Source of the DNA: Candidatus Poribacteria bacterium
GTDB taxonomy: Bacteria > Poribacteria > WGA-4E > WGA-3G
Assembly: GCA_022821965.1 (NCBI GenBank)
Contig: JAJECN010000015.1
Span: forward strand, 54,785 to 118,784
Reading direction: 5' to 3'
Length of the DNA stretch: 64,000 bases
Under the pieces are notes generated by a model that saw only the letters and a list, made by a program, of their open reading frames with translations, did no database searches and had not been told where the DNA came from. Every line of letters starts with the position of its first letter. Positions within the stretch are counted from its first letter, which is position 1. Made by a program: the position numbers and the translations under genes. Positions 1 to 62,182 of the stretch are shown here, piece after piece.

Positions 1-1
1 C

Positions 2-454
2 CGTCATTTCCATGCGAGTGCATCAGCGATAGTTGATGGTGGGCTTGATGCGAAAGGTGTATGGATTGTCAATCCCGGAAATGGTCACGCCTACAAAAAA
101 ATCCGTTTTAGTGGCGTAGAAGATGCTATTGCGCAAGCAGCGAAAGAAAATGCTTATCTTGTCGCAATTAACGATGAATCGGAACAAAACTGGATAGAAT
201 GGGCTTTTGTCCCGCATCGCACCTTAATTGGGCTCAACGATACCGAAAAAGAAGGACAGTGGCAATGGCACAGTGGAGAACCCGTCACATATACCAATTG
301 GGCGAGGGATGAACCACACGATACTGACAAAGGTGATGAAGATTATGTCATCCTGTTTGCCAACCAATGGGTGGACATCGGTCCTGGAGACATAAGATGG
401 AGGTTTATTCAGTCCGTACTCCTTGAAAAGGAAGAAACGTCTCTAAAGAAGTAA
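2..454 (+). CDS. C-type lectin domain protein, 5'-truncated by window start (paralog of the array)
   Basis: Frame-2 ORF runs from the window start to TAA at 452-454. It has CTLD motifs (VWIVNPGNGHAY, LIGLND, W-W, EPH/DED) and an AILEK-like C-terminus. Confidence 0.75.
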   Translation, partial: RHFHASASAIVDGGLDAKGVWIVNPGNGHAYKKIRFSGVEDAIAQAAKENAYLVAINDESEQNWIEWAFVPHRTLIGLNDTEKEGQWQWHSGEPVTYTNWARDEPHDTDKGDEDYVILFANQWVDIGPGDIRWRFIQSVLLEKEETSLKK

Positions 455-472
455 ACCCTAAAGGAGGAAACC

Positions 473-1888
473 ATGAAATTTTCAAATTCTAAAAGGCACG
501 TTTTGTTATTGTTGATGGTGATAGTCGCACTTTTTATCGGTTTCATTTCACACACTGTCGCGCAGGAAGATACAGGTACCGTTACCGGACGTGTTATTGA
601 TCTGGATGGAAACCCAGTTGTCGGGTTGCAGATATTTATCGCGCCTCTTGACCTTGATCCGGATGGACACATGTGGACGGTGTTTTTACCGGATGAGCAC
701 GCACAGTTGCGCCGCGCTTACACAGATCGAGAAGGTCGGTTTTCCGTAACGGATGTTCCTTCAGGTCCGGTATATATCAGTGCCCTTCCAGACGACATAG
801 ATAAACGACTGCCCAAAGACTTTGAAAGAATTGTAGATGAGTTCACGTCCAGGGATTGGACGAAGATCACAGAAGACGACATAGATGCATTCTATTCCAG
901 TAACTTCGGCATGCACTTAGATGATTTTGAACCAGATGTTGAAATTTTATTCATTCGCGTCCGAAGATTCACCTTATACCCGCGCACTGATTACGATCAA
1001 ATCGCTTTTGGTGTCAAATCGGGCGCACATATTAAGGATGTGGAAGTCATCGTACAGCCGAGGATGCGAGTTCGCGGACGTGTCCTTTTCAAAGATGGAA
1101 CACCGCTTACTAATACGCGTGTTGACCTTCGCGCGCCTTCTCGTGATGTGGATGGCTCCGGTTCCGGCGGTGCCAGCGGAGACTTGTGGGTGGATACTGA
1201 AGGTTATTTCGTTCTTTATATAGATGAGAAGAATGATCCAGCGTTCTACACGTTTTCGGTGGAATATCAGGACCTTTCTACAGAGGTTGAACCAATTCGC
1301 CTTGATCCAGGCGATCGATTTGATGGGTTGACGTTGACGTTTGACAGCGAACCGATTCCTCCCAAACGACCCTCTCAAAAAACGGAAATAGACGAGCCTG
1401 AACTATCTTCGCCTCCGCCCGTACCAGAACCATCGTCGAGACCGATGTCTCGTGATGTATGGGTCGTCAATCCTGAAAATGGGCACGCCTATAAAAGAAT
1501 TCACTGCGAAACCCGCGACGATGCGATTGCCCAAGCTACAAAGGAAAAAGCGCATCTCGTCTCAATCAACAACGAAGCGGAACAGGCATGGTTGGAGGCG
1601 GTTTTTGGGCGCAAATTCTATTGGATCGGACTCCGTCGTGTTCCCGCGACTGGTCAACTTGCCAAACGCGCAAAAGAATGGTGGCAGTGGGACAACGGCG
1701 ACTCTATCACCTATGCGAACTGGTTACCCAACGAGTTCTTTTCTGAAGCTTTGGATGCCAGCAAAAGAGATTATGTCGTCATGACGCTTCCTGACGGGAA
1801 ATGGTATCCGGTGAGTCCTGACAGTGTTATCTGGGGTATGACGGAGATGGCAATCCTCGAAAAAGCAAACGTGCTTGATAATCCGTAG
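473..1888 (+). CDS. secreted protein with 2x CarboxypepD_reg-like beta-sandwich, Pro-rich linker and C-terminal C-type lectin domain
   Basis: Strong SD AAGGAGG precedes a signal peptide. GRVIDLDGNPVVG prealbumin-like motif; CTLD motifs WVVNPENGHAY...WIGL...WQWDNGD...YANW. Confidence 0.85.
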   Translation: MKFSNSKRHVLLLLMVIVALFIGFISHTVAQEDTGTVTGRVIDLDGNPVVGLQIFIAPLDLDPDGHMWTVFLPDEHAQLRRAYTDREGRFSVTDVPSGPVYISALPDDIDKRLPKDFERIVDEFTSRDWTKITEDDIDAFYSSNFGMHLDDFEPDVEILFIRVRRFTLYPRTDYDQIAFGVKSGAHIKDVEVIVQPRMRVRGRVLFKDGTPLTNTRVDLRAPSRDVDGSGSGGASGDLWVDTEGYFVLYIDEKNDPAFYTFSVEYQDLSTEVEPIRLDPGDRFDGLTLTFDSEPIPPKRPSQKTEIDEPELSSPPPVPEPSSRPMSRDVWVVNPENGHAYKRIHCETRDDAIAQATKEKAHLVSINNEAEQAWLEAVFGRKFYWIGLRRVPATGQLAKRAKEWWQWDNGDSITYANWLPNEFFSEALDASKRDYVVMTLPDGKWYPVSPDSVIWGMTEMAILEKANVLDNP

Positions 1889-1983
1889 TGTTCTTTTTAT
1901 CTCAACACCCCCCAATTCTTTGAAAAATTATGCACCAGTTTTGCACCGAATAAGCGTCACTATAGGGCAATCGGAGGTAATTC

Positions 1984-4026
1984 ATGAAAAACATCGATGT
2001 TGAACTCATTCACCGTGTGCTTGATGGCGATGATGCCGCTTTCGCTGAGCTTGTGAAAAAATACCAAAAACCGGTTCACACGCTGGTGTGGCGTAAAATT
2101 GGAGATTTCCACATCGCCGAGGAAATTACGCAGGATACATTCTTAAAGGCGTATCAAGAATTGGCAAAGTTGAAAAAACCGCAGAGTTTTGCGAGTTGGC
2201 TTTATGTGATCGCTGCGAACCACTGCAGTACATGGCTGCGTAAAAAGCGTTTACAGACGCAGTCGCTTGAGGAAACGAGTAGTGCTCGCTTAGAAAAGGC
2301 GACATATTCGGGATATGTTGTTGAAGAAAAGGAGCGGACAGCCTTGGAAGCACAACGCGAAGTCGTGAAAAAATTGCTTGCGAAACTCCAAGAGAGTGAG
2401 CGCACAGTGCTCACACTGCATTACTTCGGTGAGATGTCCAGTGCAGAGATTAGCGCGTTTTTGGGTGTGTCAGCGAATACGATAAGGAGTCGTCTCCGTC
2501 GTGCGCAGCAGCGTTTAAGGAAGGACGAACCGATGATTCGAAAAGCCTTGGAAAATTTTCAAATCACGCCGCATCTCACAGAAAATATCATGCGTGAGAT
2601 CGCGCGTATGAAACCCGCTGCACCGTCCGGCAGTAAACCGGTGGTGCCGTGGGCAATTACTGTTTCTACGGTAGCGGTGGTATTTTTGATGTTGGGCGTT
2701 GGAAGCCATCAATACTTGTCGCGTGTCCAAAAACCGTATAATTTCGACGCAAGGTCAGAGATGACAGTTGAACTCATTGAAGCCCCCGTTGTGCTAAATC
2801 TTGAGTCCAAACCGGATATTCGGACTCAACTTGGCGACAACGATGCAATCGGTAGAGACAATAAAACGCATCAGAACCCTGATGCGACGCTATTTTCTTC
2901 CGCCTCTGGGCACATTCTCGATGAAGCGGGAGAACCGGTTTCTGGGATCACAATAGCCATTACACCTGTCGTAGACGGCAATGGGGGTTGGTTCCCGATG
3001 CGGGAACGTGCGCTTGAGGATACGCCTGCACGCCACGTGGAAAGCGATGAGAAAGGACGTTTTACTATCACCGATGCTATCTCTGGTCCCGTGTTGTTGT
3101 CGCTATTTCCATCCGGTGGCGCGGCAGTCCGTATTTTAAAGGTTCAAATCGGCGGATTGGTTTTCTATCCAAGCGGAATGATGGATCGTGGAATTGTATT
3201 TACCCCACCCCCGGGTGAGTCTATTGAGAATATTGAAGTTACGGTGCAGAGTCCGCACATCCGAGGGAGAGTACAACGCATGGATGGGAGACCCCTCGCC
3301 AACACAAAAGTCAACATCCGTTTTCGGGCAATAAGTCAGCACGGTCAAGCTTCTTCGTCTTCAAGTAGGAATACAGATCCTGAGGGGTACTTCGCATACT
3401 ATGCGGAGAGAGATATAGAGCAACCAACATTTTACATGTTTTCTGTGACATATCAGGGACAGACCCTCAATGCAGACCCGATTGTGCTTAAACCTGGAGA
3501 TCCAACACACGACATTGTTTTCACGTTTGATGGTTTGCCAGAAGAGCATTTACAGGCGCGGCGTGGCGGTTTCGCGAGCGCGTCCGCCTCAACAAGTGTT
3601 CGTGCGCAAGATGTGTGGGTAATAAAGCCGAACTTTTCTCTACAAACTGGGGCGCACGCTTACAAGAAGATTAAGTGTGAGAGTTGGGAAGATGCACGAA
3701 CCCAAGCCGCCGCCGAAGGCGCACATCTCGTTACAATCAACGATGCCGCAGAGCAGAAATGGTTGCACATTGTCTTTGGAAGCCAACCGAGTTGGATTGG
3801 ATTGAATGATATTGCGCAAGAGGGAGAGTGGCGATGGGACAACGGCGAACCGCTTACCTATATCAATTGGGGATTTCAAGAACCCAATGATACAAACAAT
3901 GGAGATGAAGATTGTGTCATCATGGGTCCCTCAGGAGAATGGGTAGATGTTAACCCTGCGGACGGCGAATGGCGCTGGATCCGGACAGCAATCATTGAGA
4001 AGGAAACGTTGTCCGTAGAGAAGTAG
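1984..4026 (+). CDS. ECF sigma-70 factor (regions 2 and 4) fused to anti-sigma-like segment, one TM helix, CarboxypepD_reg domains and C-terminal CTLD with EPN/DEDC motifs
   Basis: N-terminal sigma-70 r2 (FLKAYQEL) and r4 (TVLTLHYFGEMSSAEISAFLGVSANTIRSRLRRAQQRLRK). TM helix VVPWAITVSTVAVVFLMLGVG. C-terminal WIGLND..EGEWRWDNGEPLTYINW..EPNDTNNGDEDC. Confidence 0.85.
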   Translation: MKNIDVELIHRVLDGDDAAFAELVKKYQKPVHTLVWRKIGDFHIAEEITQDTFLKAYQELAKLKKPQSFASWLYVIAANHCSTWLRKKRLQTQSLEETSSARLEKATYSGYVVEEKERTALEAQREVVKKLLAKLQESERTVLTLHYFGEMSSAEISAFLGVSANTIRSRLRRAQQRLRKDEPMIRKALENFQITPHLTENIMREIARMKPAAPSGSKPVVPWAITVSTVAVVFLMLGVGSHQYLSRVQKPYNFDARSEMTVELIEAPVVLNLESKPDIRTQLGDNDAIGRDNKTHQNPDATLFSSASGHILDEAGEPVSGITIAITPVVDGNGGWFPMRERALEDTPARHVESDEKGRFTITDAISGPVLLSLFPSGGAAVRILKVQIGGLVFYPSGMMDRGIVFTPPPGESIENIEVTVQSPHIRGRVQRMDGRPLANTKVNIRFRAISQHGQASSSSSRNTDPEGYFAYYAERDIEQPTFYMFSVTYQGQTLNADPIVLKPGDPTHDIVFTFDGLPEEHLQARRGGFASASASTSVRAQDVWVIKPNFSLQTGAHAYKKIKCESWEDARTQAAAEGAHLVTINDAAEQKWLHIVFGSQPSWIGLNDIAQEGEWRWDNGEPLTYINWGFQEPNDTNNGDEDCVIMGPSGEWVDVNPADGEWRWIRTAIIEKETLSVEK

Positions 4027-4082
4027 GTCTTATGCTTTATTCAAGAAGTAGGTCTTATGCTTTATTCAAAAGGAGAGAAATT

Positions 4083-5531
4083 GTGAAACGTTTGAAAGCC
4101 AGTAACAAGGTTTTTGCATCGTTCATAGTAATTGGCTCGCTTTTCATCGGGTTCGCTTCACACAGCATTGCTGACGTGGAGACGGGAACCTTCTCTGGAC
4201 GTGTTGTTGATGCGGAAGGAAATCCTGTTGCGAAATTGCCGGTTATGATTGGACCCGCTATGGTTATGGGACACGGAATTCAATCCGCATTTTTTCCAAG
4301 GCTGTATTCTGCTTCGCGACGTTCACTTACAGGTGCGGATGGACAGTTTTCCATTACCGATATTACGCCGGGAATTTCCTACTTCGGGGCACTTCCTTAC
4401 GATGTAGAGACGCTCTTGCCAGATGAACTTACGGCAAACACTGCAAAGGCTACGGCAGAAAAGGATATCGCTGCGTTCCACGCAAGTGGAGTCATGAAAA
4501 TGGAGGTGGAGGATTTTGAACCCGATGTTGAGATCTTATCTCTCCGCATCCAAGGGATAACGTTCTATCCGCGTACCGATCACGAGAAGATTGGGTTTAG
4601 TGTCAAACCGGGAACCCATATTGAAAATGTAGAGGTCACGGTGCAACCTCGGATGCGAATTCGGGGACGTATCATTTTTAAAGACGAAACACCTCTTGTC
4701 AATGCACGTGTTCACCTCCGCTTCCGCTCTCAGAGTGTGGGTGGTAATCGCAACCGGCAGTCAGGCGGAAAACCGCGAACAGATGCTGCGGGTTATTTCA
4801 TCCATTATCTGGAGGAGAAAGATGATCCGGCGTTCTACACGTTTTCCGTGGAATACCAAGATCTTTCCGCAGAGGCTGGACCGATCCGTCTTGATCCAGG
4901 GGAACGTCTTGACGGAGTAAAGTTTACATTTGATAGTGAACCGGTTCCGCCGCCACAACCACCGTCTCACACTATTCCACAACCACCGCTACATATTGCT
5001 CCACAAGCATTACCTCAGACAAAGACCCTTGATCGTCCATCTGCAGCTACGCCACCGTCGCCGAGAAGATCCATGCCGATGTCAGAAGAGGTGTGGATAG
5101 TCAATCCAGAGAATTTGCATGCCTACAAAAAGATTTATTGTGAAACTCGCAGCGATGCTGTTGCACAAGCAAGGGAAGAAAACGCGCATCTTGTCACTAT
5201 TAACGACGCGGCAGAGCAGACGTGGTTAGCAAAGGTTTTTGAGCATAAATTCTACTGGATCGGGCTCAGTCGCGTTCCACCGGTGGGCACGTCTTCTAAC
5301 GCAACGCAATGGCGATGGGAGAGTGGTGAACCTATCACCTATGCGAATTGGTTACCCGATTATATCTTTGGTGAATCCTTGGATGTTGGTAAGAGGAACT
5401 ATGCTATTATGACGTTCACCGATGGGAAATGGTATGCCGTTGGTCCTGACAGTCTTGTCTGGGGTATTACGGAAATGGCGATCCTCGAAAAAGCAGACGT
5501 GCTTGATAATCCGTCCGCCGCAGAAGAATGA
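4083..5531 (+). CDS. secreted CarboxypepD_reg + C-type lectin domain protein (array paralog)
   Basis: SD AAAGGAGAG then GTG start giving signal peptide VKRLKASNKVFASFIVIGSLFIGFA. Track ORF 4032 has an upstream in-frame extension. CTLD at the C-terminus. Confidence 0.8.
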   Translation: MKRLKASNKVFASFIVIGSLFIGFASHSIADVETGTFSGRVVDAEGNPVAKLPVMIGPAMVMGHGIQSAFFPRLYSASRRSLTGADGQFSITDITPGISYFGALPYDVETLLPDELTANTAKATAEKDIAAFHASGVMKMEVEDFEPDVEILSLRIQGITFYPRTDHEKIGFSVKPGTHIENVEVTVQPRMRIRGRIIFKDETPLVNARVHLRFRSQSVGGNRNRQSGGKPRTDAAGYFIHYLEEKDDPAFYTFSVEYQDLSAEAGPIRLDPGERLDGVKFTFDSEPVPPPQPPSHTIPQPPLHIAPQALPQTKTLDRPSAATPPSPRRSMPMSEEVWIVNPENLHAYKKIYCETRSDAVAQAREENAHLVTINDAAEQTWLAKVFEHKFYWIGLSRVPPVGTSSNATQWRWESGEPITYANWLPDYIFGESLDVGKRNYAIMTFTDGKWYAVGPDSLVWGITEMAILEKADVLDNPSAAEE

Positions 5532-5622
5532 TAACTGTAAAAGGTATTCCTGTCCGAATAAACGTTTACATTAGCGCAATTTACTACCCTAATGCATCAA
5601 TATTACAAAAGGGGAATTTATA

Positions 5623-6864
5623 ATGAATCTTCAAAATTTCAAACAAAATCTTAGATTTTTTGTTGGGATGATAATACTTTCTCTTCTGGTATCATTGTCT
5701 GTTGTTGCTCAACAAGGCGCGACAATTTCTGGACGCGTCGTTGATGAGCTGGGGGATCCGGTTGTCGGCACTTCGGTAGCACTCCATCGGTATAAAGCCA
5801 TAGATGATGATGAGCGACGAGTACGATTCGTGCCTTTCTGGCAAAAGCCGGTCGATTTAGATGGAAGTTTTTCATTCACGAACATCGCGCCAACGGAGTC
5901 CGTTAGTTTCATTGTAGAGGGTGAACGAACGAAAGGAAAAATCCTTTCTATTCAAATGGGTGAACTCACCCTTTATCCGGGGGACCATCCACATTTTGGT
6001 AAAGTAAGGTTTTCCTTGGAAGCAGGGATGGAAATCGAAGACGTTGTCGTCACGGTGAATACTACTATCCAACCACAAGTCCGCGTCCGAGTCGTTTCTG
6101 CCGATGGAACACCGCTTGCCAACGCGAATATACACGTTGCAGTACAACGTAAAGATTTAGATGGAACTGGCTCTGGGAGTTCTGGTAACACAACACAGAC
6201 CGATGCAGAAGGATATTTCGTAGAAGACCTTAGGGTGGATGACGATCCTAAATTCTATGTGCTTGGCGTTGAACACCAAGGACTTTTCGCGAAAGCACCG
6301 CCTTTCATTTTACATGAAGGACAACCACAAGTTCATCTCCTTTTGACCCTCAACGGTAATCCAGATCCACTTGCACGTCCACCAGTACGTCCGCCAATGG
6401 GTCCACCTGCGTCCGCTATTGCACTAACGGCGTTTCTTGATCCACCAACGGTATGGATTGTGAACCCCGCAAATGGACACGCTTACAAAAAGATCCATTG
6501 TAACAGTATAGCAGATGCTACGACCCAAGCCGCTGCAGAAAAGGCGTATCTCGTTGCCATCAATGATGAGGCAGAAAATGAATGGCTGGACGGAATCTTT
6601 GGGCGAGAGAGTTTTTGGATTGGACTCAACGATGCCGCCGAAGAAGGACAGCTGGTTTGGGATAGCGGTGAACCTGTTACCTATACGAATTGGGGTGAAC
6701 ATGAACGAGTAGGTGACAACACTGAGGTGAATGACTACGTTATCTGGGGATTTGGCGGTAGATGGGAAATGGTCGCGCTTGGAAGTCCGCATACGCATTT
6801 TGTCAAAACAGCTATTCTTGAAAGGACAGATGTCCCTGTTGAAACAGCATCTGAAGACAATTAG
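5623..6864 (+). CDS. secreted CarboxypepD_reg + C-type lectin domain protein (array paralog)
   Basis: SD precedes a signal peptide. CTLD motifs [43 protein letters not shown]. Confidence 0.85.
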   Translation: MNLQNFKQNLRFFVGMIILSLLVSLSVVAQQGATISGRVVDELGDPVVGTSVALHRYKAIDDDERRVRFVPFWQKPVDLDGSFSFTNIAPTESVSFIVEGERTKGKILSIQMGELTLYPGDHPHFGKVRFSLEAGMEIEDVVVTVNTTIQPQVRVRVVSADGTPLANANIHVAVQRKDLDGTGSGSSGNTTQTDAEGYFVEDLRVDDDPKFYVLGVEHQGLFAKAPPFILHEGQPQVHLLLTLNGNPDPLARPPVRPPMGPPASAIALTAFLDPPTVWIVNPANGHAYKKIHCNSIADATTQAAAEKAYLVAINDEAENEWLDGIFGRESFWIGLNDAAEEGQLVWDSGEPVTYTNWGEHERVGDNTEVNDYVIWGFGGRWEMVALGSPHTHFVKTAILERTDVPVETASEDN

Positions 6865-6930
6865 CGACAACGCAACGTTGGGTTGGCTTTCAGTTTAATC
6901 CAATCTGCATTTTTATAAGGAGAATTTACG

Positions 6931-8265
6931 ATGAATCACCGAAGTTTCACACACATTGCATACCTTTTCAGTGTTGTAATAGTACTCTTTCTCGTTGCAT
7001 CCGTCCCTTGTATCGCACAGAACGGGACAGCACTCTCTGGTACCGTCCTTGACATGGAAGGGAAGCCGATTGCTGGATTTGCCATTGGGTTGTTACAAGG
7101 GGCTCTAATATCCATGACTGATGAAAAGGGTGCTTTCACTTTCACCAATATCCCCGCCGGACCGGTTCAAATTGCGATTCCAACGCAGCCGTCCAAAGAG
7201 AATGAAGAACCTATGTTCGATTTTGAGGCGGATGATGAAATCCTCTCAATCAAAATCAGGGGTATAACGCTTTATCAAGACACGCGTCCGCCTTTCGGCG
7301 GCATCGAGTTCGGTGTCAAATCGAGCAGCCATATCAAGGATGTAGCGGTTACCGTGCGTCCCCGAACGCGCATTCGGGCGAAAGTTATTTTCAAAGATGG
7401 AAAGCCGCTAACGAACGCCTCTGTTTCCCTGATAGTTGAGGGCAACGGTAGGGCGACCGGAGGAGCTACCACGGATGCCGAGGGATATTTTGTAAGTTAT
7501 TTCGATAAAAACGAGGTCCCAGCACACTACACGGTCTCCGTGAAATATAAAGGACTCTCGGCGAAATCAGAACTATTTCTGCTTGAAGAGGGGGCGCGCT
7601 ATGACGATTTAGTTTTAACGCTCGATGGTAATGTGCCGCCTGCTGCCCCACAAAAGGAATCTCTGCCGAAAGTTTTAGATAAATTGAGTGATGGATTGAC
7701 ACCACCTGAGAAACCGACACTCACCGAAACAGACCGCTCTGTACCAACTAACAAGGGGCAGGTTAATATTCAAGAGGTAGAAGTAAAACCTCGTGTAACA
7801 GGGGCTGAACCTACTAAACCCGTTAGGCAGATGCGACCGCCGTGGGAGAAAGATGCGTGGGCTGTGAACCCTGCAAATGGACACGGTTATAAAAAGATCC
7901 GGTGCGACAGTCTGGATGAGGCGCGAGATCGCGCTGCCGCTCAAGGCGCGTTCCTTCTTGCGATTAACGACGAAGCGGAGCAGAAATGGATTTCGGGATT
8001 CTTTGGGAATCATCTCTATTGGATTGGACTCAGCGATGCTGAAAACGAAGGGGAATGGGTATGGCAGAACGGTGATCCGCTCACCTATACGAATTGGGGA
8101 CCCAAGCACAGTTTCCCGCGGAGTCCGCTTTCACAGGAAAAGAAGGACAGTGCTGTGATGACGTTTGCGAATGGACAGTGGCATGCCGTTGGTCCCGGTG
8201 ACGTGCTCTGGCGTATGACGAAGATGGCAATCCTTGAAAAAGCAGACGTGCTTGATGGAAAATAA
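6931..8265 (+). CDS. secreted CarboxypepD_reg + C-type lectin domain protein (array paralog)
   Basis: SD AAGGAGA precedes a signal peptide. C-terminal CTLD; its 3' end is near-identical to that of the next gene. Confidence 0.85.
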   Translation: MNHRSFTHIAYLFSVVIVLFLVASVPCIAQNGTALSGTVLDMEGKPIAGFAIGLLQGALISMTDEKGAFTFTNIPAGPVQIAIPTQPSKENEEPMFDFEADDEILSIKIRGITLYQDTRPPFGGIEFGVKSSSHIKDVAVTVRPRTRIRAKVIFKDGKPLTNASVSLIVEGNGRATGGATTDAEGYFVSYFDKNEVPAHYTVSVKYKGLSAKSELFLLEEGARYDDLVLTLDGNVPPAAPQKESLPKVLDKLSDGLTPPEKPTLTETDRSVPTNKGQVNIQEVEVKPRVTGAEPTKPVRQMRPPWEKDAWAVNPANGHGYKKIRCDSLDEARDRAAAQGAFLLAINDEAEQKWISGFFGNHLYWIGLSDAENEGEWVWQNGDPLTYTNWGPKHSFPRSPLSQEKKDSAVMTFANGQWHAVGPGDVLWRMTKMAILEKADVLDGK

Positions 8266-8321
8266 TATTTCTCGGACTCCAGTTTATTTGATGTCTCAAC
8301 ATTCAAAAAAGGAGAATCTAC

Positions 8322-9722
8322 ATGAATCTTCAACGTCTCGGTTTAAAACTTGGGATCCTCGTCGGCATTGTGGTATTCTCCTCTACTGTCGTCACTAAAG
8401 TGCAGGCAGGTAAACGCCCACAAATTCGCGCACGGGTCGTCTTTGCCGATGGAACACCGCTTGCTAACGCTGAAATATATGTTTTGGTGATACGCAGAAA
8501 CTTAGATGCAGGCGGCTCCGGAGGTTCAGGAAGTACAATGCAGACCGATGCCGAGGGATACTTTGTGGAAACCCTTAACGTAGGTAATAGATCCAAATTT
8601 TATGTGGTTGGTGTTGCGTATCAGAGGTATCTCGCGAAAGTCCCCCCTTTTATTTTGCAGGAGGGACAACCAGAAGTTCATCTACTCTTGACACTTGATG
8701 ACAATCGCGTTCCGATAGATAGATGGAACCCTGACCGAGAACACACAGCATTAGAAGCGTTTCTTGAGCCACCGACGGTATGGGTAGTGAATCCTATAAA
8801 TGGGCACGCTTATAAAAAGATTTATTGCCACGATGTAATGGATGCCCTGACCCAAGCCGCTACAGAAGGTGCGTATCTTGTTTCCATTAACGATGAAGCG
8901 GAGGAGATATGGATACAAGGAGTCTTTGAACCAGATAGTTTTTGGATCGGACTCAGCGATGTTGCTAAGGAGGGACAGTGGGTCTGGCACAGCGGTGAAC
9001 CGGTTACGTATACTAACTGGGGAGAGAATAAACAGGACGGTGGTAACACCGAGGTGAACGATTACGTCATCTCTGACTTTGGTGCCGAATGGCGGGCGGT
9101 TGCGCCGGGGGATGAACATACCCCTTTTACCCAAGAGGCAATCCTCGAAAGAGCAGATGTGCCTGTTAAGACACTATCTAATGAACAGACAAATGCCCAG
9201 CCAACGGGTGTCTCAATACCACCTGATAAAACTACCACCGCTCAAACCGGTCGTTTTGTCCCATCTCGGCAAATAAAGTCACTTTTGGAGATAGGTGTAT
9301 GGGCTGTAAACCCGGCAAATGGGCATGCTTACATAAGTATTCCGTGCAAAAGTCTGGACGATGCGCGAGATAGTGCCGCTGCCCAAGGTGCACACCTCGT
9401 CGCGATTAACGACGCAGCGGAACAGCAGTGGCTTTTAGGACTTTTTGGGAATCACCTTTATTGGATCGGACTCAGTGATGCCAAAAAAGAGGGTGAATGG
9501 ATATGGCAGAACGGTGAACCACTTACCTATAAGAATTGGGGATCCAAGTATAAATTCCCTCGTAGTTCTCTCTCACTGGAAGAGAAAGACAGTGCTGTTA
9601 TGACGTTTGCGAATGGACAGTGGCATGCTGTTGGTCCCGGTGACGTGCTCTGGCGTATGACGAAGAGGGCGATCCTTGAAAAAACAGACGTGTTTGACAG
9701 TTCCTCTGTGAAAGAAAAATAA
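8322..9722 (+). CDS. secreted mosaic paralog with two tandem C-type lectin domains
   Basis: Signal peptide, then a single prealbumin-like domain (5623-type). CTLD 1 resembles the 5623 gene's CTLD and CTLD 2 resembles the 6931 gene's CTLD. Confidence 0.85.
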
Positions 9723-9972
9723 TAGTTTGAATCTACAATTTTTCGTTTCGTGCTCACTTCTCCCCAGACAATTTTTTCCAATTAATTTGTCAGTCATTCC
9801 CACAAAGTCTACAGAGACATTCAGTTTTCCTGTGGCATTCAAAATATGTAGAACTGCCACAAGGTTCTCTTGCTAACGACCCATAACTGATAACTCCCGC
9901 GTGGAACGGGTTTCTTCGGGAAACACACAAGGAAAACACCCCGATCTCTCCCGCATAAGATGGAAATGGCTT

Positions 9973-10722
9973 ATGAGCCACCGAAACCTTTTACATAGAA
10001 TATTGGTAATCCCCCTTACAGTTACAATTTGTGCTTTCTTGGGTTGTGGTGAAACTATAGAAACTATAGAGATAGACAGAGCGAGTTTTTCAGGACGCGT
10101 TGTTGATGAAGTTGGAAATCCAGTTGCAGGGCTCGCGTTAGTCATTGTCCCGTGTAAAGTTGATGATGAGGCCGATATAGCGGTTTACGACGCGGAGACT
10201 AATGATACAGGTCATTTCTCTATTACGGGTATCTATCCCGGAAAAGCTCATTTCATGTTAGAGCCTGGGTATCAAAACGGTCTACCTCTTGAGCCGGAAT
10301 ATCAACTCCTTTCCTTTAAAATCGGGGTTTCTGCTTACTCTCCGAAAGACTTGTCTCCTGATCCTTGCACTCAGGATACCTTTTTTATTTCGCCGGGTGC
10401 GCGAATCGAAAACGTAGAGGTCGCGGTGCGCCTCCGGATGCGGATTCGCGCGAAAGTCGTTTTTGCAGATGGCACCCCCTTGGTAGATAAAGAGGTTAGT
10501 CTCAACATAAGAGCGTTCGATTTACAAGGAAGTAGTGTTGTTGGAGGTATCCAGGGGTCTGTGCAAACCGATGCTCAGGGATACTTTGTGCAGTATGTAG
10601 ATAGGAACGAGGCAATCGGCTATAGGGTGTCAGTTGAATATAAATGGCTTTGCTCAACATCGGAGATATTTATATTCGGAGTTGAGGAACGTCGCGAAGA
10701 TCTGATTTTGAAGTTAAGTTGA
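9973..10722 (+). CDS. lipoprotein paralog with CarboxypepD_reg-like domains, lacking the lectin domain
   Basis: Lipobox AFLG-C after MSHRNLLHRILVIPLTVTI. GRVVDEVGNPVAG motif. The protein ends before any CTLD. Start chosen at the in-frame ATG that gives a canonical lipoprotein signal; track ORF begins at GTG 9901. Confidence 0.7.
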   Translation: MSHRNLLHRILVIPLTVTICAFLGCGETIETIEIDRASFSGRVVDEVGNPVAGLALVIVPCKVDDEADIAVYDAETNDTGHFSITGIYPGKAHFMLEPGYQNGLPLEPEYQLLSFKIGVSAYSPKDLSPDPCTQDTFFISPGARIENVEVAVRLRMRIRAKVVFADGTPLVDKEVSLNIRAFDLQGSSVVGGIQGSVQTDAQGYFVQYVDRNEAIGYRVSVEYKWLCSTSEIFIFGVEERREDLILKLS

Positions 10723-10844
10723 AGTTAACAAGTGCACCCAAGTGAAGTGTGCCCTTTTTAAATCCAGACACCTGTAAACTGATTCATACCTTAGCTTGGA
10801 CGACATGCAGAGAAGATTCTACCCACATAAAGGGGAGGGTAACT

Positions 10845-11642
10845 ATGAGTTGTCAAAATTTTTTACATGAAATAGTGTTAATTTCCTTTGTAATTGCAAT
10901 CTGTACCTTATTGGGTTGTGGTGAAACTGAAGATACGTCCTCCTTGGCATTGTCGGAAACCGTGATAGATGGGGACACAGCAAGTTTTTCAGGGCGCGTT
11001 GTTGATGAAAATGGGAATCTGGTTGCTGGGCTTGCCTTGGTCATTCAGCCTCTTGAAGTCGACGATAATACTGGGGGGTGGATGTACGGTCCGACTTTGG
11101 AAGCGGAGACCGATGATGCAGGACATTTCTCTATCACAAATATTCGTCCTGGGCAATTTCAATTCATGTTGGCACGTGACTATCGGAACAGTCTGCTTTT
11201 TGAAACGGAATATCAACTCCTTTCTGTCAAAATCGGGACTTTTGCCTATCATCCGGGCGACCGGTTCCCTCCTGCTTTTACTAAAGATACTCTTTCTATC
11301 ACTCCAGGCGCGGAAATAGAAAACGTAGAGGTCACGGTACGACTCCGAATGCGGGTTCGCGCGAAAATTGTTTTTGCAGATGGCACGCCCTTGGCAAACA
11401 AGGAAGTTAAAATCAGCATAAAAACGCGAGATTTACATGGAGATGGGAGTGGGAGTATTGGGTCTATATTGCAAACCGATGTCCAAGGGTACTTCATACA
11501 GTACGTGGATAGAGGTCGGGCGACCTCCTACACCGTATCGGTAGAATATAAAGAACTTTCTGCAACGTCAGAGAAATTTGTACTCAATGTCGGGGAACGT
11601 CGCGAAGATTTAATTTTGAAATTATCGGGTCCTCCCCAGTAA
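10845..11642 (+). CDS. lipoprotein paralog with CarboxypepD_reg-like domains, lacking the lectin domain
   Basis: SD AAAGGGGAGGG then ATG. Lipobox TLLG-C. About 60% identical to the 9973 gene. Confidence 0.75.
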   Translation: MSCQNFLHEIVLISFVIAICTLLGCGETEDTSSLALSETVIDGDTASFSGRVVDENGNLVAGLALVIQPLEVDDNTGGWMYGPTLEAETDDAGHFSITNIRPGQFQFMLARDYRNSLLFETEYQLLSVKIGTFAYHPGDRFPPAFTKDTLSITPGAEIENVEVTVRLRMRVRAKIVFADGTPLANKEVKISIKTRDLHGDGSGSIGSILQTDVQGYFIQYVDRGRATSYTVSVEYKELSATSEKFVLNVGERREDLILKLSGPPQ

Positions 11643-11687
11643 AGTGATGATAACGGCACTAAAGCGTATGAATTAGATGTGGTCGCT

Positions 11688-12767
11688 TCACGAAAGTAGA
11701 TTTCCACAGTAGGCACAAGCGTCTAACTTGACATCTCCATTAAACGTTTCACGCTCCGGCGTTAAGTAGGTCTCATAGTTCGTAACGCAATTTGGGTTTT
11801 CACACGTCCGAGTAGAGGTGCCAATGTCTCGTTTCGGGGGTTGGGTCAAGATGAGTTGTTCCAATCCCATGAGACTGGCGATGAGTGCCATCCGAACCGG
11901 TACTGCGTTGGCGGATTGCTCGAAATAGGCGGCACGTGGGTCGTCGTCTAACTCATAAGCGAGTTCATTGACGCGCGGGAGTGGATGCATAATCATCGCG
12001 TCCGGCTTTGCGTTTTTCATGACTTCTGCATTCAGTAGATAACTGCCGCGCACGGCGGCTGGATCCATGTTCGATGGCAGTCGTTCCTCCTGAAGCCGAT
12101 TCACATAGATGACATCCAACCTCTCAATCACTTCTGTGATATTTTCTACTTCAAGCGGTATCTGTCCATGACACTGTTCGAGTTGCGCGAGCAGCCACGG
12201 TGGCATCTGTAGCGGTTGTGGCGCGATGTGAACCAGTTGCCCACCGAATCTCGCAACTGCCAAAGCAAAGGAGTGTGCCGCTCGTCCAAACTGCAGATCG
12301 CCGCAGATACCGACGGTTAACCCTTCTACTTTCGATTTTCGGCGTATAATCGTATATAGGTCCGCGAGTGCTTGTGTCGGATGTGTATGGCTGCCATCAC
12401 CGCCGTTGATGACGGGGATATGCGCGTATTTTGCCATAACACGTGCTGCGCCTGCCCAGTTATGCCGCACCACAATGATGTCGGCATAATTCGTCACCAT
12501 CCGCGCAGTGTCGGCGAGCGTTTCGCCTTTGGCGGTAGAAGTCGCGCTTGGGTCAGCGAAACCGAGAGTGCCACCATTGAGGCGTTCCATCGCACTTTCA
12601 AACGAAAGCCGGGTACGTGTACTCGGTTCATAGAAGAGCGTTGCGAGCAATTTGCTCCTGCTGATGCCCGCCCATGTCTCTAATTGCGACTGCATGCCTC
12701 CTGCAAGTCGAAAAATCTGTTCAATCTCAAAATTCGACAAATCGTCGAGTGTTATCAGATGCCGCAT
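11688..12767 (-). CDS. pyrB: aspartate carbamoyltransferase catalytic chain fused to a PyrI-type C-terminal zinc-ribbon domain
   Basis: STRTR and HPTQALAD ATCase motifs with SD AAGGAGG. Extra C-terminal ~45 aa C-ENPNC...C-AYC resembles the PyrI zinc domain (CPNSNC...CKYC). Confidence 0.85.
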   Translation of the reverse strand: MRHLITLDDLSNFEIEQIFRLAGGMQSQLETWAGISRSKLLATLFYEPSTRTRLSFESAMERLNGGTLGFADPSATSTAKGETLADTARMVTNYADIIVVRHNWAGAARVMAKYAHIPVINGGDGSHTHPTQALADLYTIIRRKSKVEGLTVGICGDLQFGRAAHSFALAVARFGGQLVHIAPQPLQMPPWLLAQLEQCHGQIPLEVENITEVIERLDVIYVNRLQEERLPSNMDPAAVRGSYLLNAEVMKNAKPDAMIMHPLPRVNELAYELDDDPRAAYFEQSANAVPVRMALIASLMGLEQLILTQPPKRDIGTSTRTCENPNCVTNYETYLTPERETFNGDVKLDACAYCGNLLS

Positions 12768-12809
12768 TTTCCTCCTTTAAGCACGTGTTGTGAGTGTATC
12801 TTTTCGTTC

Positions 12810-13766
12810 TTATCTGCTTAAAGATTGCATGAACGCTTCAAGACTGTCGGATTGAGGAACCGCAAGTAACAATTGCTTGAGGTCTTGCAAATCGTCTATA
12901 GATTCAAGAGCAGGCTTTAAGGCTTGGACTGCATCAGTCTCAAACTGCATCCCGAGCAATGCGATAATGTTTTCAATGGTGCCTTTTTTTTCACCTTGTT
13001 CGATGCCTTGTTCAATACCTTGTTCAATACCTTGTTCAATACCTTGTTCGATGCCTTCCTTGAGTCCCTCTTGTTTAGCCTCTATTTTTGCCTCCTGAAT
13101 GTAGTGTTGAAAAAAAGGAGATTCTTGCATGATACCCTCCGGTAAAAGTTGTTTAATCAGTTGGGGTTCATAAACTAAACCGCCAAAAACACCCAGGGCT
13201 GCCAATAAAGTATCTCGAGTATGTCGGTCTGTGCGTGCTGATGCTGTTACATCAATACATTTTTCCAACCAACGGTTCGGATTTGTCCCTTCTGGCGGTT
13301 TCATCAACGGTGTGAACGGCAGTAATCCCGGTGCCTGCATTTCCAAAATTGATTGTCCATCTATCTCAATCAACTTAATCACTTTGTAGCGCAATGTGTA
13401 TTCATAACCGGAATCCTTGTAAGCATAGTAGCCTTTATCATATCTGCCTGCTTTGGGGTGCAGATAGAGAACGTTAGAGTAAACAGGTATCTCATGTAAA
13501 TTCATCAGAAAACCGTTATATCCTGCAATCCGGGACCACATCGGTTTTCTGCTATTATCTGCTTGGACCTCGGTATGAAGTATCACTGTTGCGTTGTCGA
13601 GCTGCACCTTCAAGGTACTGTCATTTTGATGCGTCTTGAGTGTTGGTTCCTCAGTTTCAAGTCTCTCCAGAACTGTGATGTTTGAATGCCCCACCATGAA
13701 TTCTGCGAATTCTTGTGAATATTCCAGCATAATATATTTCGCTGCGTTGTCATAATGCTGTGCCAT
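12810..13766 (-). CDS. Rpn-family recombination-promoting nuclease / putative transposase (PDDEXK_7) with C-terminal GIEQ repeat domain
   Basis: VILHTEVQ (D/E..Q nuclease motif) and a C-terminal (GIEQ)x5 DUF4351-like repeat. Start uncertain; an alternative upstream start at 13841 would overlap pyrD. Confidence 0.6.
   Translation of the reverse strand: MAQHYDNAAKYIMLEYSQEFAEFMVGHSNITVLERLETEEPTLKTHQNDSTLKVQLDNATVILHTEVQADNSRKPMWSRIAGYNGFLMNLHEIPVYSNVLYLHPKAGRYDKGYYAYKDSGYEYTLRYKVIKLIEIDGQSILEMQAPGLLPFTPLMKPPEGTNPNRWLEKCIDVTASARTDRHTRDTLLAALGVFGGLVYEPQLIKQLLPEGIMQESPFFQHYIQEAKIEAKQEGLKEGIEQGIEQGIEQGIEQGIEQGEKKGTIENIIALLGMQFETDAVQALKPALESIDDLQDLKQLLLAVPQSDSLEAFMQSLSR
12995..13054. repeat. 5 tandem copies of a 12-bp unit (CTTGTTCAATAC/CTTGTTCGATGC) encoding the (GIEQ)5 repeat of the Rpn-family protein
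   Basis: Direct reading of the sequence. The repeat lies inside the CDS, is in-frame and is not a CRISPR array. Confidence 0.9.
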
Positions 13767-13815
13767 ATTGTTATTATACACCAGATTTTCAGGAGATACA
13801 ACTTTTTCACAATAA

Positions 13816-14745
13816 TTACGAATCGACCTGCAAGCTACCAATCAATTCATTAATCGATTTCATGTTTGCTTCTTTGAGGTAGGCGTGAATCCCTTTTACG
13901 ACTTCTATTGATGCGTGTGGATTAACGAAGTTCGCTGTCCCGATTGCGACGGCGGAGGCACCGGCGATAAAAAATTCAATGGCATCTGTCGCAGTCATAA
14001 TGCCTCCCATGCCGATAATTGGGATTGAGACGTTTTTGTAAACCTCCCAAACCAATCGGAGTGCCACGGGCTTTATCGCAGGACCGGAGAGTCCTCCTGT
14101 CACGTTTGCAAGTTCCGGTTTTCGTGTTTCTGCATTAATCGCCATACCGAGAAGCGTGTTGATGGCGGAAAGCGCGTTCGCACCCGCATCCTCGACGGCA
14201 CGTGCAATAATGCTAATATCTGTAACGTTTGGGGAGAGTTTCACTAAGAGTGGTAGGTGTGTGTTTGCTCGAACCTCTGTGACAAGTTGATGTGCCAACG
14301 TTGCATCAACACCGAAACTCATACCACCGCAATCTAAGTTCGGACAGGAGATGTTGAGTTCCACCCCCGCGATGCCATCTGCCGTGTTTAGTTTTTCGAT
14401 CACTGTCAGGTATTCTTTGACCGTTTTGCCACAGACGTTGACAATTACCGGTACATCGAAATCACGGAGGTAGGGAAGTTTCTCCGAGATAAAACCGTCT
14501 ACGCCGACGTTTTGAAGTCCAATCGCATTGAGCATACCGGAGGGTGTTTCCATGATGCGTTGCATCGGATTGCCGGGCCACGGCACGCTTGTGATGCCTT
14601 TAACGACGACCGCACCGAGTCGGTTCAGATCCACGAAATCCACGTATTCACTGCCGTAGCCGAAGGTGCCGGATGCCGTCATGACGGGATTGCGCATCTG
14701 TATCCCGCCGATATTCACGCTGAGTGGTAAGTCTGTTGTGTCCAT
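13816..14745 (-). CDS. pyrD: dihydroorotate dehydrogenase, class 1 catalytic subunit
   Basis: Motifs NPVMTASGTFGYG, LNISCPN, GGMSFG. Start chosen by homology at MDTTDLPL; the ORF extends in-frame to 14790. Confidence 0.8.
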   Translation of the reverse strand: MDTTDLPLSVNIGGIQMRNPVMTASGTFGYGSEYVDFVDLNRLGAVVVKGITSVPWPGNPMQRIMETPSGMLNAIGLQNVGVDGFISEKLPYLRDFDVPVIVNVCGKTVKEYLTVIEKLNTADGIAGVELNISCPNLDCGGMSFGVDATLAHQLVTEVRANTHLPLLVKLSPNVTDISIIARAVEDAGANALSAINTLLGMAINAETRKPELANVTGGLSGPAIKPVALRLVWEVYKNVSIPIIGMGGIMTATDAIEFFIAGASAVAIGTANFVNPHASIEVVKGIHAYLKEANMKSINELIGSLQVDS

Positions 14746-14854
14746 TTTATCTAAATGAGGGTAGTTTTGCTGTTCTTCATGAATCTTCATGAAAAGTTTA
14801 GCACCAATATATCTCAGAAGTCAAGCAATTTTCCGCATTCTTTTGGTAAGAGGT

Positions 14855-16798
14855 TTACCAACTTAGGTAGACGACGCGAAAATCGAAAATCAATCCCAAA
14901 ATACTAATTATGGATGCGACGATCACATCACCAATAACCAAGCCGATGAAGAACGGGATTGAACGCCGGTATAAGCGGACACCTCCAGTCGAGAGCAATA
15001 TCCGTTTAATGATCCAACTGATTAAGAGCGGAAACCAAAGTCCGGTAAAGGTCCACCAACTTGAAACGACGTATCCAACGGGATGCAGGGGCCACTGAAT
15101 GAATCGCCATCGTAGGAGCAGGAGGCTAACAGCGAAGGTAAATCCGCCAGCGGTATAGAGCATACCGCTAATACTCGTTTCGCTGGGATTATAAAGCCAT
15201 CCCGCGAGTCTGTTGAAAGCGGCGCGAGCATACCACGAGCGCGCCTGCTCTAAACCGACTTGGTAGGAGAGATGCAAGTGTCCCCACGCTGCAGAGAGCG
15301 CACCTACGAAGATAGCAATCGCTAATACCCATAGCAATTGCGTCGGATTGAAGCGGGTTTGATGTGCGAGTTTCAATCCCTCCAGTTGATGCGGCATCGG
15401 GTGTGCACGATACGAGAGATGGTTCAACCAGAAAAAGAGCGACATCACCGAGAGGTTCCGGTTGCCGATACGCCGTGTGCCGAGAGCATCTGTCAAAAGT
15501 AGGTCTGGACCGGCGTTGTAGAGGTCGTGCGCGGGCGGTCCCAGTTCGGCACGGATACGGGTGATTGTCACCGACATCGCGAAATAGAGCGCGAAGAATA
15601 AGGCTGCAAACCAGAGCGACATTCCCGCCTTCAGACAAAACGCCAGAATCAAGATAAATCCGATGAGCGCGCCGATGCCTGCTGTTCTATAACGTAACGC
15701 TTCACCTTCGTCGTTAGTGGGAGGCGCGCGGTTGTTGAAAATCGTCTGCAGCACCACCTTAACATGTGAACGTCCCATCCACAGGGTCCAGAGAAATAGG
15801 GCTATCCAGACCCCTCGAATTTGCGCCATTTCTCGCGGAAATCCGACAGCACCTCGCCAGCCGAACATCTCACCAATGATCCGCTCAAAGTGCCAAAACA
15901 GGTGAAAAAACCAGCAGGAGAACCCCAAATCGAGTGGGATCAGAAAACCCACCCCAATCGCAAACGGAAAGAAACTGATACGGAAACCGGGGTTATTCAT
16001 CGCACTCCACGGCTTTTCACCGAGTCGAAATCCGTGGTAAAGCGGAATTGTAGGGAAAACAGGATCGATTTGGTGTAAACTATAAAGAAGATTCAGGACA
16101 GCAGCGATGCATAAGCCGACGGTCATCATCCGTCTATTGAAAAACAGATGGGACGCAGTTCGTAGGGGGTTTCCTGCATTTGTCGCCGCTCGTGTGATTT
16201 CGTAAGGGAGTTGTGCGATCGGGTAGGTGAGCCGTTCATGTTCTTGCCACTGCTTACGTATAAGCACATTGATGCAGAGCATCGTCACCCCGATGACGAG
16301 GCAGAAACAGACCCAGATTAACGTTGGCAATAGCCACGCTTGTATGTTGGTCTGGAGGTAGAACGTGGATTCGCCTTTGTAGAAACCTTGTAATACCTCC
16401 TGTTTTCCAACGACAAGCCATTCAGGAAGGTGTTGATGAAAGAGTTGTGCCCATTCATTTTCGGTAGTTGCGTACCAAAAACCGTTGCCCATCAATGGCA
16501 CCAAGACTTGTAGCATATCGCGTCCGGCGAAAACGGAGGCTTGGCACAGCATCGCATAGATCGTTAGCAATTCGCTCTGTGTAAACGCCAACGTTGGGTG
16601 CAAGCGGCGTAGTATCACACTGAGTCCGATAAGGACGAGCAGCGTGAACAGGACATTGAACAGCAATGCTAAACTCGTGGGGCGGTTGGAGTCCCATATA
16701 TAACTGAGGTGTAGAACCCAGTAGCTATTAAATGGGATGAGCAGAATTCCAATCAGCGTTGCACGTAGCGTAATAGGGCTTTTTGAAGGGTGTTTCAT
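14855..16798 (-). CDS. large polytopic integral membrane protein of unknown function (647 aa, >12 predicted TM helices)
   Basis: Long ORF made of hydrophobic segments throughout. No catalytic motif recognised. Confidence 0.6.
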   Translation of the reverse strand: MKHPSKSPITLRATLIGILLIPFNSYWVLHLSYIWDSNRPTSLALLFNVLFTLLVLIGLSVILRRLHPTLAFTQSELLTIYAMLCQASVFAGRDMLQVLVPLMGNGFWYATTENEWAQLFHQHLPEWLVVGKQEVLQGFYKGESTFYLQTNIQAWLLPTLIWVCFCLVIGVTMLCINVLIRKQWQEHERLTYPIAQLPYEITRAATNAGNPLRTASHLFFNRRMMTVGLCIAAVLNLLYSLHQIDPVFPTIPLYHGFRLGEKPWSAMNNPGFRISFFPFAIGVGFLIPLDLGFSCWFFHLFWHFERIIGEMFGWRGAVGFPREMAQIRGVWIALFLWTLWMGRSHVKVVLQTIFNNRAPPTNDEGEALRYRTAGIGALIGFILILAFCLKAGMSLWFAALFFALYFAMSVTITRIRAELGPPAHDLYNAGPDLLLTDALGTRRIGNRNLSVMSLFFWLNHLSYRAHPMPHQLEGLKLAHQTRFNPTQLLWVLAIAIFVGALSAAWGHLHLSYQVGLEQARSWYARAAFNRLAGWLYNPSETSISGMLYTAGGFTFAVSLLLLRWRFIQWPLHPVGYVVSSWWTFTGLWFPLLISWIIKRILLSTGGVRLYRRSIPFFIGLVIGDVIVASIISILGLIFDFRVVYLSW

Positions 16799-44864: not shown

Positions 44865-44947
44865 TCGCCCTCCGTTGTGTTAAGAAAAATAGTCGTCATC
44901 TGTAACAAAAGCGAGAAATCCACATGAGACGTAAACCTTGGAGGCTA

Positions 44948-53698: not shown

Positions 53699-53711
53699 GG
53701 GATGATCTGAT

Positions 53712-62172: not shown

Positions 62173-62182
62173 GAAAATACAG

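Follow-up and report, generated by a model that had tools for sequence, protein, structure and literature searches.

The 64,000-nucleotide stretch of Candidatus Poribacteria DNA considered here (contig JAJECN010000015.1 of assembly GCA_022821965.1; hereafter the window) opens with an array of paralogous lectin genes, one of which, gene E, encodes an extracytoplasmic function (ECF) sigma factor, a transmembrane helix, and a lectin ectodomain in a single polypeptide. The locus is best explained, with confidence somewhat above even, as a lectin regulon in which E is a one-component transmembrane sigma sensor placed over an exported lectin family at a fixed site. This explanation is built on observations of gene architecture and fold, of synteny and paralogue number across genomes, of the conserved promoter, and of selection at the locus. 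Most informative is the sigma–lectin fusion, together with its promoter. A first-pass annotation of the window missed both of these, as well as the variation in copy number between syntenic loci.

The array comprises 11 paralogous genes, A–K, all on the plus strand, with A, B, and most of C lying upstream of the window. Nine genes had been counted at first, and that count holds for positions 1–11642, where nine consecutive plus-strand paralogous genes are found, the first of which (gene C) is cut by the window start. The full number comes from a Logan contig that shares an identical 2118-base overlap with the window and that carries two further paralogues, the remainder of gene C, and then a divergently transcribed gene of the MR_MLE (mandelate racemase-like) family. 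The genes had also been assigned a uniform architecture that included a signal peptide. Gene E (1984–4026, plus strand) departs from it, having no signal peptide but rather Sigma70_r2 and Sigma70_r4 domains and one hydrophobic segment (Pfam), as does gene I, which contains two C-type lectin-like domains (CTLDs).

The N-terminal 180 residues of E constitute an ECF sigma factor with sigma2 and sigma4 only. The core, residues 23–180 (2050–2523), matches Sigma70_r2 (5.6e-13), Sigma70_r4_2 (1.7e-13), and TIGR02937, the last at 96 bits versus a cutoff of 42.9, and Sigma70_ECF is also matched, which places E in the ECF superfamily. Residues 181–300 (2524–2883) comprise a family-specific cytoplasmic linker, a single hydrophobic helix at about residues 219–241 (nucleotides 2638–2706), and a conserved juxtamembrane stretch. 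The ectodomain is composed of two β-sandwich domains of the CarboxypepD_reg-like type (residues 305–520; 2896–3543), to which gene C is the sister, and a CTLD (residues 543–680; 3610–4023) with an EPN...DED...WVD motif. The 500 residues that follow sigma4 exceed by far the 50 residues that mark a C-terminal extension in ECF sigma factors that have no anti-sigma partner, and no Pfam anti-sigma domain was found in E or in its neighbors, the +1 gene being a lectin paralogue.

Full-length E is found in more than 60 clusters, down to 43% identity, and its first ~300 residues are 60–82% (mostly 66–80%) identical to many Poribacteria proteins that carry other C-terminal domains, including WD40, BNR/sortilin-type propellers, and transglutaminase-like domains. 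The NCBI names for homologues of E and of gene F, which come from Candidatus Poribacteria, are “sigma-70 family RNA polymerase sigma factor” and “lectin-like protein”, respectively. In 74 fetched loci, 214 sigma-fusion open reading frames (ORFs) are present, often 2 to 6 in tandem. Residues 181–300 of E matched 250 cluster representatives among 1.84 billion proteins, and in most full-length proteins the match falls at about residues 181–299, so this region is a linker, membrane helix, and stalk specific to the family. Across genomes, each sigma module clusters with its orthologues and not with the other modules of its own genome, which indicates that the family is old and has not been homogenized. 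Similar neighbors of the other sigma fusions in the fetched loci are mostly further sigma fusions, and the lectin locus is therefore unusual in keeping an unfused sister.

Two side observations concern this family. Loci L010–L075 (for example, L026, L028, L034, and L039) hold WD40/BNR-type sigma–membrane fusions in clusters of 2 to 6 per 20 kb, and each tandem gene has its own copy of the promoter motif described below. In the window, positions 1984–2718, which encode the sigma and membrane part of E, have a synonymous divergence (dS) of 0.175 to the closest relative, versus ~0.4 elsewhere in the locus; concerted evolution of the sigma modules was considered as the cause and was rejected, as the modules group by orthology.

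A motif of the form TGCACC-N17-GCGTC (1931–1958, plus strand) lies 54 nt upstream of E, and the conserved block of which it is part runs on to the ribosome-binding site (RBS), GGAGGT. This block, ATGCACC-N17-GCGTCACTATAG...GGAGGT...ATG, is invariant in the window and in eight orthologous loci and spans 60 nt, the remaining spacer being not alignable. Two distant loci have a variant, TGCAAC-N17-G(A/T)GTC, upstream of the sigma–lectin gene. A TGCACC-type motif also precedes most of 66 paralogous sigma-fusion genes and a few non-sigma genes for secreted proteins that lie beside sigma fusions, where it is conserved between genomes. The site upstream of E has the features expected of an ECF promoter, namely a −35 element with AAC/CAC, a −10 element with CGT, and a spacing of about 16–17 nt. 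By its form it is a candidate ECF promoter, and its position fits autoregulation; both the promoter form and autoregulation are established for ECF sigma factors (summarized in PMC7826278). The sigma domain of E itself is probably what uses this promoter.

Eight genomes contain a full-length E orthologue with adjoining lectin paralogues, numbering 11, 7, 7, 6, 5, 4, 4, and 3. Seven of these eight loci lie between MR_MLE and pyrB/pyrD, and one (L004) lies in another context. In two distant genomes, E is 43–45% identical, MR_MLE is on the left, and the sigma–lectin gene comes first. It is followed in one of them (L076) by five lectin genes with pyrB beyond, and in the other (L077) by one lectin gene and a different right flank. 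Although the number of paralogues thus ranges from 2 to 11, the core is invariant: in all loci compared, the sigma–lectin gene is closely followed by a lectin gene of the D/F type, represented here by gene F (4083–5531, plus strand), which directly follows the sigma–lectin gene in 11 of 11 loci. The gap between the two is about 30–60 nt in two loci measured by eye and reaches 191 nt in the most distant locus. Between genomes, the flanking genes are 87–99% identical at the protein level and the array genes 46–87%, and, at similar dS, the ratio of nonsynonymous to synonymous divergence (dN/dS) is 0.006–0.07 for the flanking genes versus 0.16–0.40 for the array. The island is therefore vertically inherited and fast evolving. 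These comparisons mark the region as a genomic island that is specific to Poribacteria, is fixed in its chromosomal position, and extends from the MR_MLE-like gene to pyrB (11688–12767, minus strand), the conserved right-hand boundary.

In the proposed mechanism, a cytoplasmic ECF sigma domain, a single membrane helix, and an extracytoplasmic lectin-family domain would make E a one-component transmembrane signaling protein. Outside the cytoplasm, its lectin ectodomain would bind a ligand, for which a glycan or a partner lectin is the most likely candidate, and the tethered sigma domain would then be released or activated, probably by regulated proteolysis. The sigma domain would transcribe from TGCACC-N17-GCGTC upstream of E, yielding E, F, and probably G–K, and might also use a weaker copy of the promoter upstream of A, yielding A–D; the sensor would thereby turn on the lectin repertoire. 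This mechanism is proposed because the fusion, the promoter, and the E–F pair are all conserved and because the sigma part of E, with a dN/dS of 0.12, is under purifying selection.

Several points weigh against this reading. Its functional steps, including expression, binding, and cleavage, are all predicted from sequence. The AlphaFold2 model of E is poor over residues 1–304, with a predicted local distance difference test score (pLDDT) below 50 for residues 188–304, and no anti-sigma domain or protease site is recognizable in E. The motif for Ca and sugar binding is missing from most of the CTLDs, which leaves room for a ligand other than a carbohydrate. The promoter is common to many related sigma fusions and so is not assignable to E alone. 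As for the copy upstream of A, it is absent in L005 and altered in L008, and in the two closest genomes it is conserved no better than its surroundings; a conserved promoter of the sigma70 type, TTGAC(G/A)-N17-TATTAT, moreover lies nearer the start of gene A. The function of this copy is therefore uncertain, and it may be a fossil.

The remains of this second ECF promoter copy are found in the spacer between MR_MLE and A in six of seven genomes and differ in their completeness. In L006 (2303–2385), the promoter, leader, RBS, and first nine sigma codons (MKNIDVELI) are present and are identical to the same genome's live copy. The promoter and leader remain in L003 (4117–4170), L009 (4287–4340), and L008, and in the window genome (copy at L001 1432) and its closest relative, L002, the two hexamers alone are left, at their exact spacing. 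This series suggests that the element may be a progressively decayed fossil of the 5′ end of a sigma gene. A tentative extension, to which we give well under even weight, treats the sigma cassette (promoter, RBS, sigma2–sigma4, linker, helix, and stalk) as a portable “receptor-maker”, of which the island would show three stages in E, C, and the decayed copy, with E sensing or pairing with the lectins that it induces. By landing before a gene for an exported protein, the cassette may turn the domain of that protein into a self-activating sigma sensor.

The exported family that E accompanies consists of proteins with two transthyretin-like sandwiches, a disordered Pro-rich linker, and a CTLD, with each paralogue having its own stable loop. 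Genes A, B, C, D, F, G, and H adopt this architecture behind a signal peptide (signal peptides were assigned by eye from the sequences). The part of gene C within the window (1–454, plus strand; the complete gene is at 4309–5562 of L001) contains a CTLD with EPH...DED...WVD. Gene D, the sister of F, is located at 473–1888, gene G at 5623–6864, and gene H, which resembles G and has a long linker, at 6931–8265, all on the plus strand. Gene I (8322–9722, plus strand) has a signal peptide, a single β-sandwich, the first of the usual two being absent, and its two CTLDs. The two members without a CTLD that had been noted in the first annotation are J (9973–10722, plus strand; start ATG 9973) and K (10845–11642, plus strand; start ATG 10845), both of which have two β-sandwiches and lipoprotein signal peptides with an LGC lipobox (FLGC and LLGC, respectively). 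With corrected starts, the intergenic gaps from C to K are 18, 95, 56, 91, 66, 56, 250, and 122 nt, two of which exceed the range of 18–120 bp given before. The start of F is GTG 4083 and not 4032; the spurious longer ORF from 4032 results from a perfect 25-nt tandem duplication in the E–F spacer (4019–4068, plus strand; AGAAGTAGGTCTTATGCTTTATTCA twice), the first copy of which contains the stop codon of E. The unit is present in single copy in L002.

The assignment of CTLDs and prealbumin-like domains, which had been made from motifs, was borne out by profile searches of the eight complete genes D–K. Pfam Lectin_C (PF00059; gathering cutoff, 22.6 bits) scored 32.0 bits in D, 59.5 in E, 37.9 in F, 39.5 in G, 48.2 in H, and 90.4 over the two domains in I, and CarboxypepD_reg was at or near threshold in all eight. 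For gene C, a precomputed Lectin_C match is on record, and its CTLD is alignable with those of the other paralogues. The Pro-rich linkers and the motifs W.VNP.NGHAY, WIGL, and W.W..G, reported earlier, were all found in the paralogue alignment. The CTLD of E has PDB sequence matches to solved animal CTLDs, including those of DEC-205, PLA2R, the mannose receptor, and CL-P1, and its model overlays on CD23 and SRCL with Foldseek template modeling scores of 0.73–0.81. Whereas the AlphaFold2 model of E has a mean pLDDT of 59 overall, values of 70–89 are obtained for the ectodomain and 60–88 for the CTLD; the model of F has a mean of 75. The two helices, two sheets, and long loop region that define the CTLD fold are all visualized. 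These assignments are sound because Pfam profiles, PDB sequence matches, and AlphaFold2/Foldseek comparisons agree, and the domains of the array are Lectin_C CTLDs of the animal type.

The fold is kept without several of its customary embellishments. Neither of the two conserved CTLD disulfides (C1–C4 and C2–C3) is present in the array, and the canonical cysteines are lost from the alignment. One Cys, located before helix 1, is common to most paralogues, and the β3 Cys is found in E alone among them and is kept in 11 of 65 E orthologues. The first-pass annotation had given the CTLDs a canonical (E/Q)PN...DED motif, an attribution that turns out to be restricted to C (EPH) and E (EPN), which come nearest to the Ca/sugar motif, and that is unconserved among orthologues. 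The EPN/QPD plus WND motif is missing from the other eight of the 10 CTLDs (A, B, D, F, G, H, and both of those in I), and the strict signature of a Ca-dependent C-type lectin (EPN or QPD plus WND; Ca site 2) was not found. In the 65 E orthologues, E-P-x-D ... E-D ... W-x-D is conserved, the “N” positions are variable, and the third position is D, G, H, N, R, or S. Ca-dependent sugar binding is therefore not to be assumed, given the rarity of the motif and its variability in E orthologues, and the glycan-binding role named in the first-pass annotation is putative.

The animal character of these domains allows a different explanation of the locus, in which the CTLDs were acquired from a sponge host or mimic those of the host and are exported as eukaryote-like effectors that bind host glycans or cells, for example, in phagocytosis avoidance or mesohyl anchoring, with the sigma fusion sensing the host. 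The organism belongs to a sponge symbiont lineage, all of the solved structures closest to the CTLDs come from metazoans, ankyrin-repeat and VHL-β proteins are also encoded in the window, and the dN/dS of the array is 4 to 40 times that of its flanks. The only visible export signals, however, are Sec or lipoprotein signals, and the locus contains no secretion system. A Sec signal peptide in a diderm guarantees the periplasm and no further destination, the surface or secreted location given at first is accordingly putative, and in such a cell it is the periplasm into which the E ectodomain must project. Moreover, the binding loops show no positive selection, and the CTLDs have neither the disulfides nor the Ca site that are typical of animal lectins outside the cell. 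We consider an effector role unlikely, albeit a possibility that deserves to be kept in mind.

Doubtful as well is the explanation that the locus is an ordinary lectin array on housekeeping promoters, in which the sigma–lectin protein autoregulates only itself and F, or serves an unrelated regulon, and owes its position in the array to a historical accident of sigma-cassette insertion. We would assign this account a rather low probability. The sigma70-like promoter upstream of A is conserved in all loci, a strong site of this type lies upstream of J, and the ECF promoter copy upstream of A is decaying. TGCACC-N17-GCGTC has a single exact match in the 64-kb window, and a search of the window for a regulon gave no enrichment of looser promoter matches (20 vs 15 expected). 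Fortuitous insertion of duplicated sigma genes has, in addition, been proposed for Planctomycetes (Pinto and da Fonseca 2020, PMC7671368). On the other hand, every genome examined retains the pairing of a sigma–lectin gene with a lectin gene, even at 43% identity, the array genes all point the same way, short gaps separate them, no terminator-like site lies between D and E, and upstream of A the −35 and −10 hexamers and their spacing persist where the remaining fossil has decayed.

The history of the family can be read from its sister pairs. C and E are 45% identical in the sandwiches and 49% in the CTLD, D and F 50% and 64%, and G and I 56% and 65%; the CTLD of H is 77% identical to the second CTLD of I, and J and K are 57% identical. 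These pairings agree with the earlier claim of a family formed by tandem duplication, and the claim of recombination is likewise consistent with gene I, a chimera with a G-like front and an H-like CTLD. As C–D and E–F are adjacent pairs in which C is sister to E and D to F, a two-gene unit has been duplicated. Paralogue pairs have a dS of 0.7–1.5 and the window and its closest relative one of about 0.35–0.4, so the duplications predate the split from that relative.

Paralogues do differ most in the long loop of the CTLD, as had been noticed at the outset: between Y.NW and strand β3, the mean paralogue identity is 14.8%, versus 58% and 67% in CTLD core segments, and D and F have an additional insert after WIGL. 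A different pattern is seen between orthologues. Comparison of the window with its closest relative (Nei–Gojobori, by region) gives the loop a dN/dS of 0.21, a sign of purifying selection; this value lies between those of the CTLD core (0.14) and the N-terminal domains (0.27), and the linker has the highest, 0.43. Among 46 F orthologues, the loop has an entropy of 0.37 bits, below the average variability of the protein, versus 0.55 for the sandwiches, 0.81 for the linker, and 0.95 for the D/F-specific insert between WIGL and WxW, which is the most variable segment of the CTLD. Loop-focused positive selection was rejected on these grounds, and the picture of a family still diversifying, drawn in the first-pass annotation, gives way to one of old paralogue pairs with conserved ortholog loops. 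Divergent between paralogues and conserved between orthologues, the loops point to functional partitioning after old duplications and not to ongoing diversification; they are presumably the ligand-binding surfaces of the CTLDs.

That the array is a hypervariable receptor system diversified by a diversity-generating retroelement (DGR) or by active gene conversion, an idea that the strongly different binding loops of the paralogues and the status of CTLD folds as the usual DGR targets might encourage, is so improbable that we set it aside, and it is refuted as far as sequence data allow, since repeat searches, run on the array and on the full window, gave no near-identical repeats and hence no template/variable pair (maximum DNA identity, 83%), no reverse transcriptase-like ORF was seen by eye among those of at least 80 aa in 1–16000 and at least 150 aa in the remaining window (no reverse transcriptase profile search was run), the domains are Lectin_C and not DGR-type variants, paralogue dS is 0.7–1.5, and ortholog loops are conserved, in keeping with the initial judgment that no DGR is involved.

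Several other features of the window lie outside the array. The pyrB gene encodes a Cys-rich tail of ~55 residues (CENPNC...CAYCG) beyond the end of aspartate carbamoyltransferase models, which may be a zinc domain like that of the regulatory subunit, fused to the enzyme. Between pyrB and pyrD, an ORF at 12810–13841 (minus strand) with a (GIEQ)n tract, a 12-nt tandem repeat at 12982–13057, and no Pfam match is present in L006 and L008 and absent in L002, L003, L005, L007, and L009, a presence/absence polymorphism. Four exported proteins in two tandem paralogue sets (32878–34143, 34373–35065, 48554–49336, and 49401–50183, minus strand), the latter two of which are Laminin_G_3 proteins, have a common C terminus, VEP(A/S)GKL..(K/T)W(A/G).(I/L/V)K, that may be a lineage-specific sorting or anchoring signal. 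Eukaryote-like proteins include an ankyrin-repeat protein with 99-nt repeats (44948–45886, minus strand) and a protein with a metallopeptidase-like region and a VHL β domain (56312–57538, plus strand). The latter falls in 56000–64000, where the G+C content drops from about 0.48 to 0.42–0.44 and where a 1439-aa protein with a sacsin/HATPase-like N terminus and a NucS_C-like C terminus is encoded (57608–61927); this segment is a possible foreign or defense island. A carbohydrate-degradation context is found at 42546–47263 and 51449–55334, with a fucosidase-type enzyme of glycoside hydrolase family GH95 (confirmed by Pfam) and, recognized by eye from translations, one sulfatase-like and two GH32-like genes.

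The locus is a compact, conserved test case for a sigma sensor, offering a defined sensor CTLD with unfused sister controls, a candidate promoter, and a natural genome series in which the putative target genes number 2–11. We know of no system in which the signal sensing or activation of a membrane-tethered, single-polypeptide sigma factor has been demonstrated experimentally. Of the titles and abstracts found in literature searches on Poribacteria and C-type lectins or sigma factors, none deals with such a locus. The array places animal-type lectin domains, as a fast-evolving and functionally partitioned family, in a major uncultured lineage of sponge symbionts, and it bears on how these symbionts recognize host or dietary glycans. 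It also corrects a tempting inference, in that differences between the loops of paralogues do not mean ongoing hypervariation.

Among known systems, the carbohydrate-recognition domains of animal C-type lectins (mannose receptor family, CD23, and SRCL) share with the array CTLDs the Lectin_C family, the fold, the WIGL motif, and the tryptophan core. The array domains differ from them in lacking the two disulfides, in the loss of Ca–sugar motifs from eight of 10 members, and in their bacterial context with transthyretin-like domains. Mtd and TvpA are DGR variable proteins with a C-type lectin fold. Similar to these proteins, the array uses a CTLD scaffold with a ligand-binding surface that varies between copies; in contrast, it has no template repeat or adenine-specific variation, and its variation is ancient and fixed. 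In the polysaccharide utilization loci of Bacteroidetes, modules of ECF sigma factor, anti-sigma factor, and SusCD are duplicated (described in PMC7671368). The lectin locus likewise places an ECF sigma factor within a duplicated cluster of exported glycan-related proteins, but it has no SusC/SusD and no FecR-type anti-sigma factor, and its sensor is fused to the sigma factor.

A working system that offers the closest analogy is SigI/RsgI of Clostridium thermocellum, in which membrane sensors bear carbohydrate-binding modules like those of the enzymes induced (PMC10328401, PMC4711584, PMC6852018). As in that system, the extracellular domain of the sensor is of a carbohydrate-binding type and of the same kind as domains in the proteins that it would regulate, multiple paralogous sensors are present per genome, and their promoters are probably autoregulatory. 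In SigI/RsgI, however, the sigma and anti-sigma factors are separate, the sigma factor is of the SigI type, and activation by autoproteolysis and RseP has been shown, whereas E is one polypeptide of the ECF type with no recognizable cleavage module and an unmodeled juxtamembrane stretch. Neither a separate SigI-type sigma factor nor an RsgI with an autoproteolytic periplasmic domain is found, and the likeness, by analogy, may lie in the mode of action and not in relationship.

The nearest relatives in kind are the extended ECF sigma factors of Planctomycetes, which combine a conserved core with unrelated C-terminal extensions and are thought to have arisen when a duplicated sigma gene inserted into a coding region (PMC7671368); ECF01-Gob sigma factors with C-terminal extensions are cited in PMC5766207. 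Like the planctomycetal clusters, the Poribacteria family has a conserved sigma2/sigma4 core, unrelated variable C-terminal domains, many paralogues per genome, no separate anti-sigma gene, and an extension that apparently derives from coding sequence already present where the sigma gene inserted. Unlike them, the conserved Poribacteria cassette also takes in a linker, a single transmembrane helix, and a juxtamembrane stretch (residues 181–300) and travels with its own promoter and RBS, and the captured domain of E keeps an adjacent unfused sister in gene C (45–49% identical). The lineage is also different, Poribacteria, and the likeness rests on architecture and not on placement in an ECF group. 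As far as sequence comparison goes, the lectin locus fits the insertion idea, with a sensor and the unfused sister of its captured domain preserved side by side.

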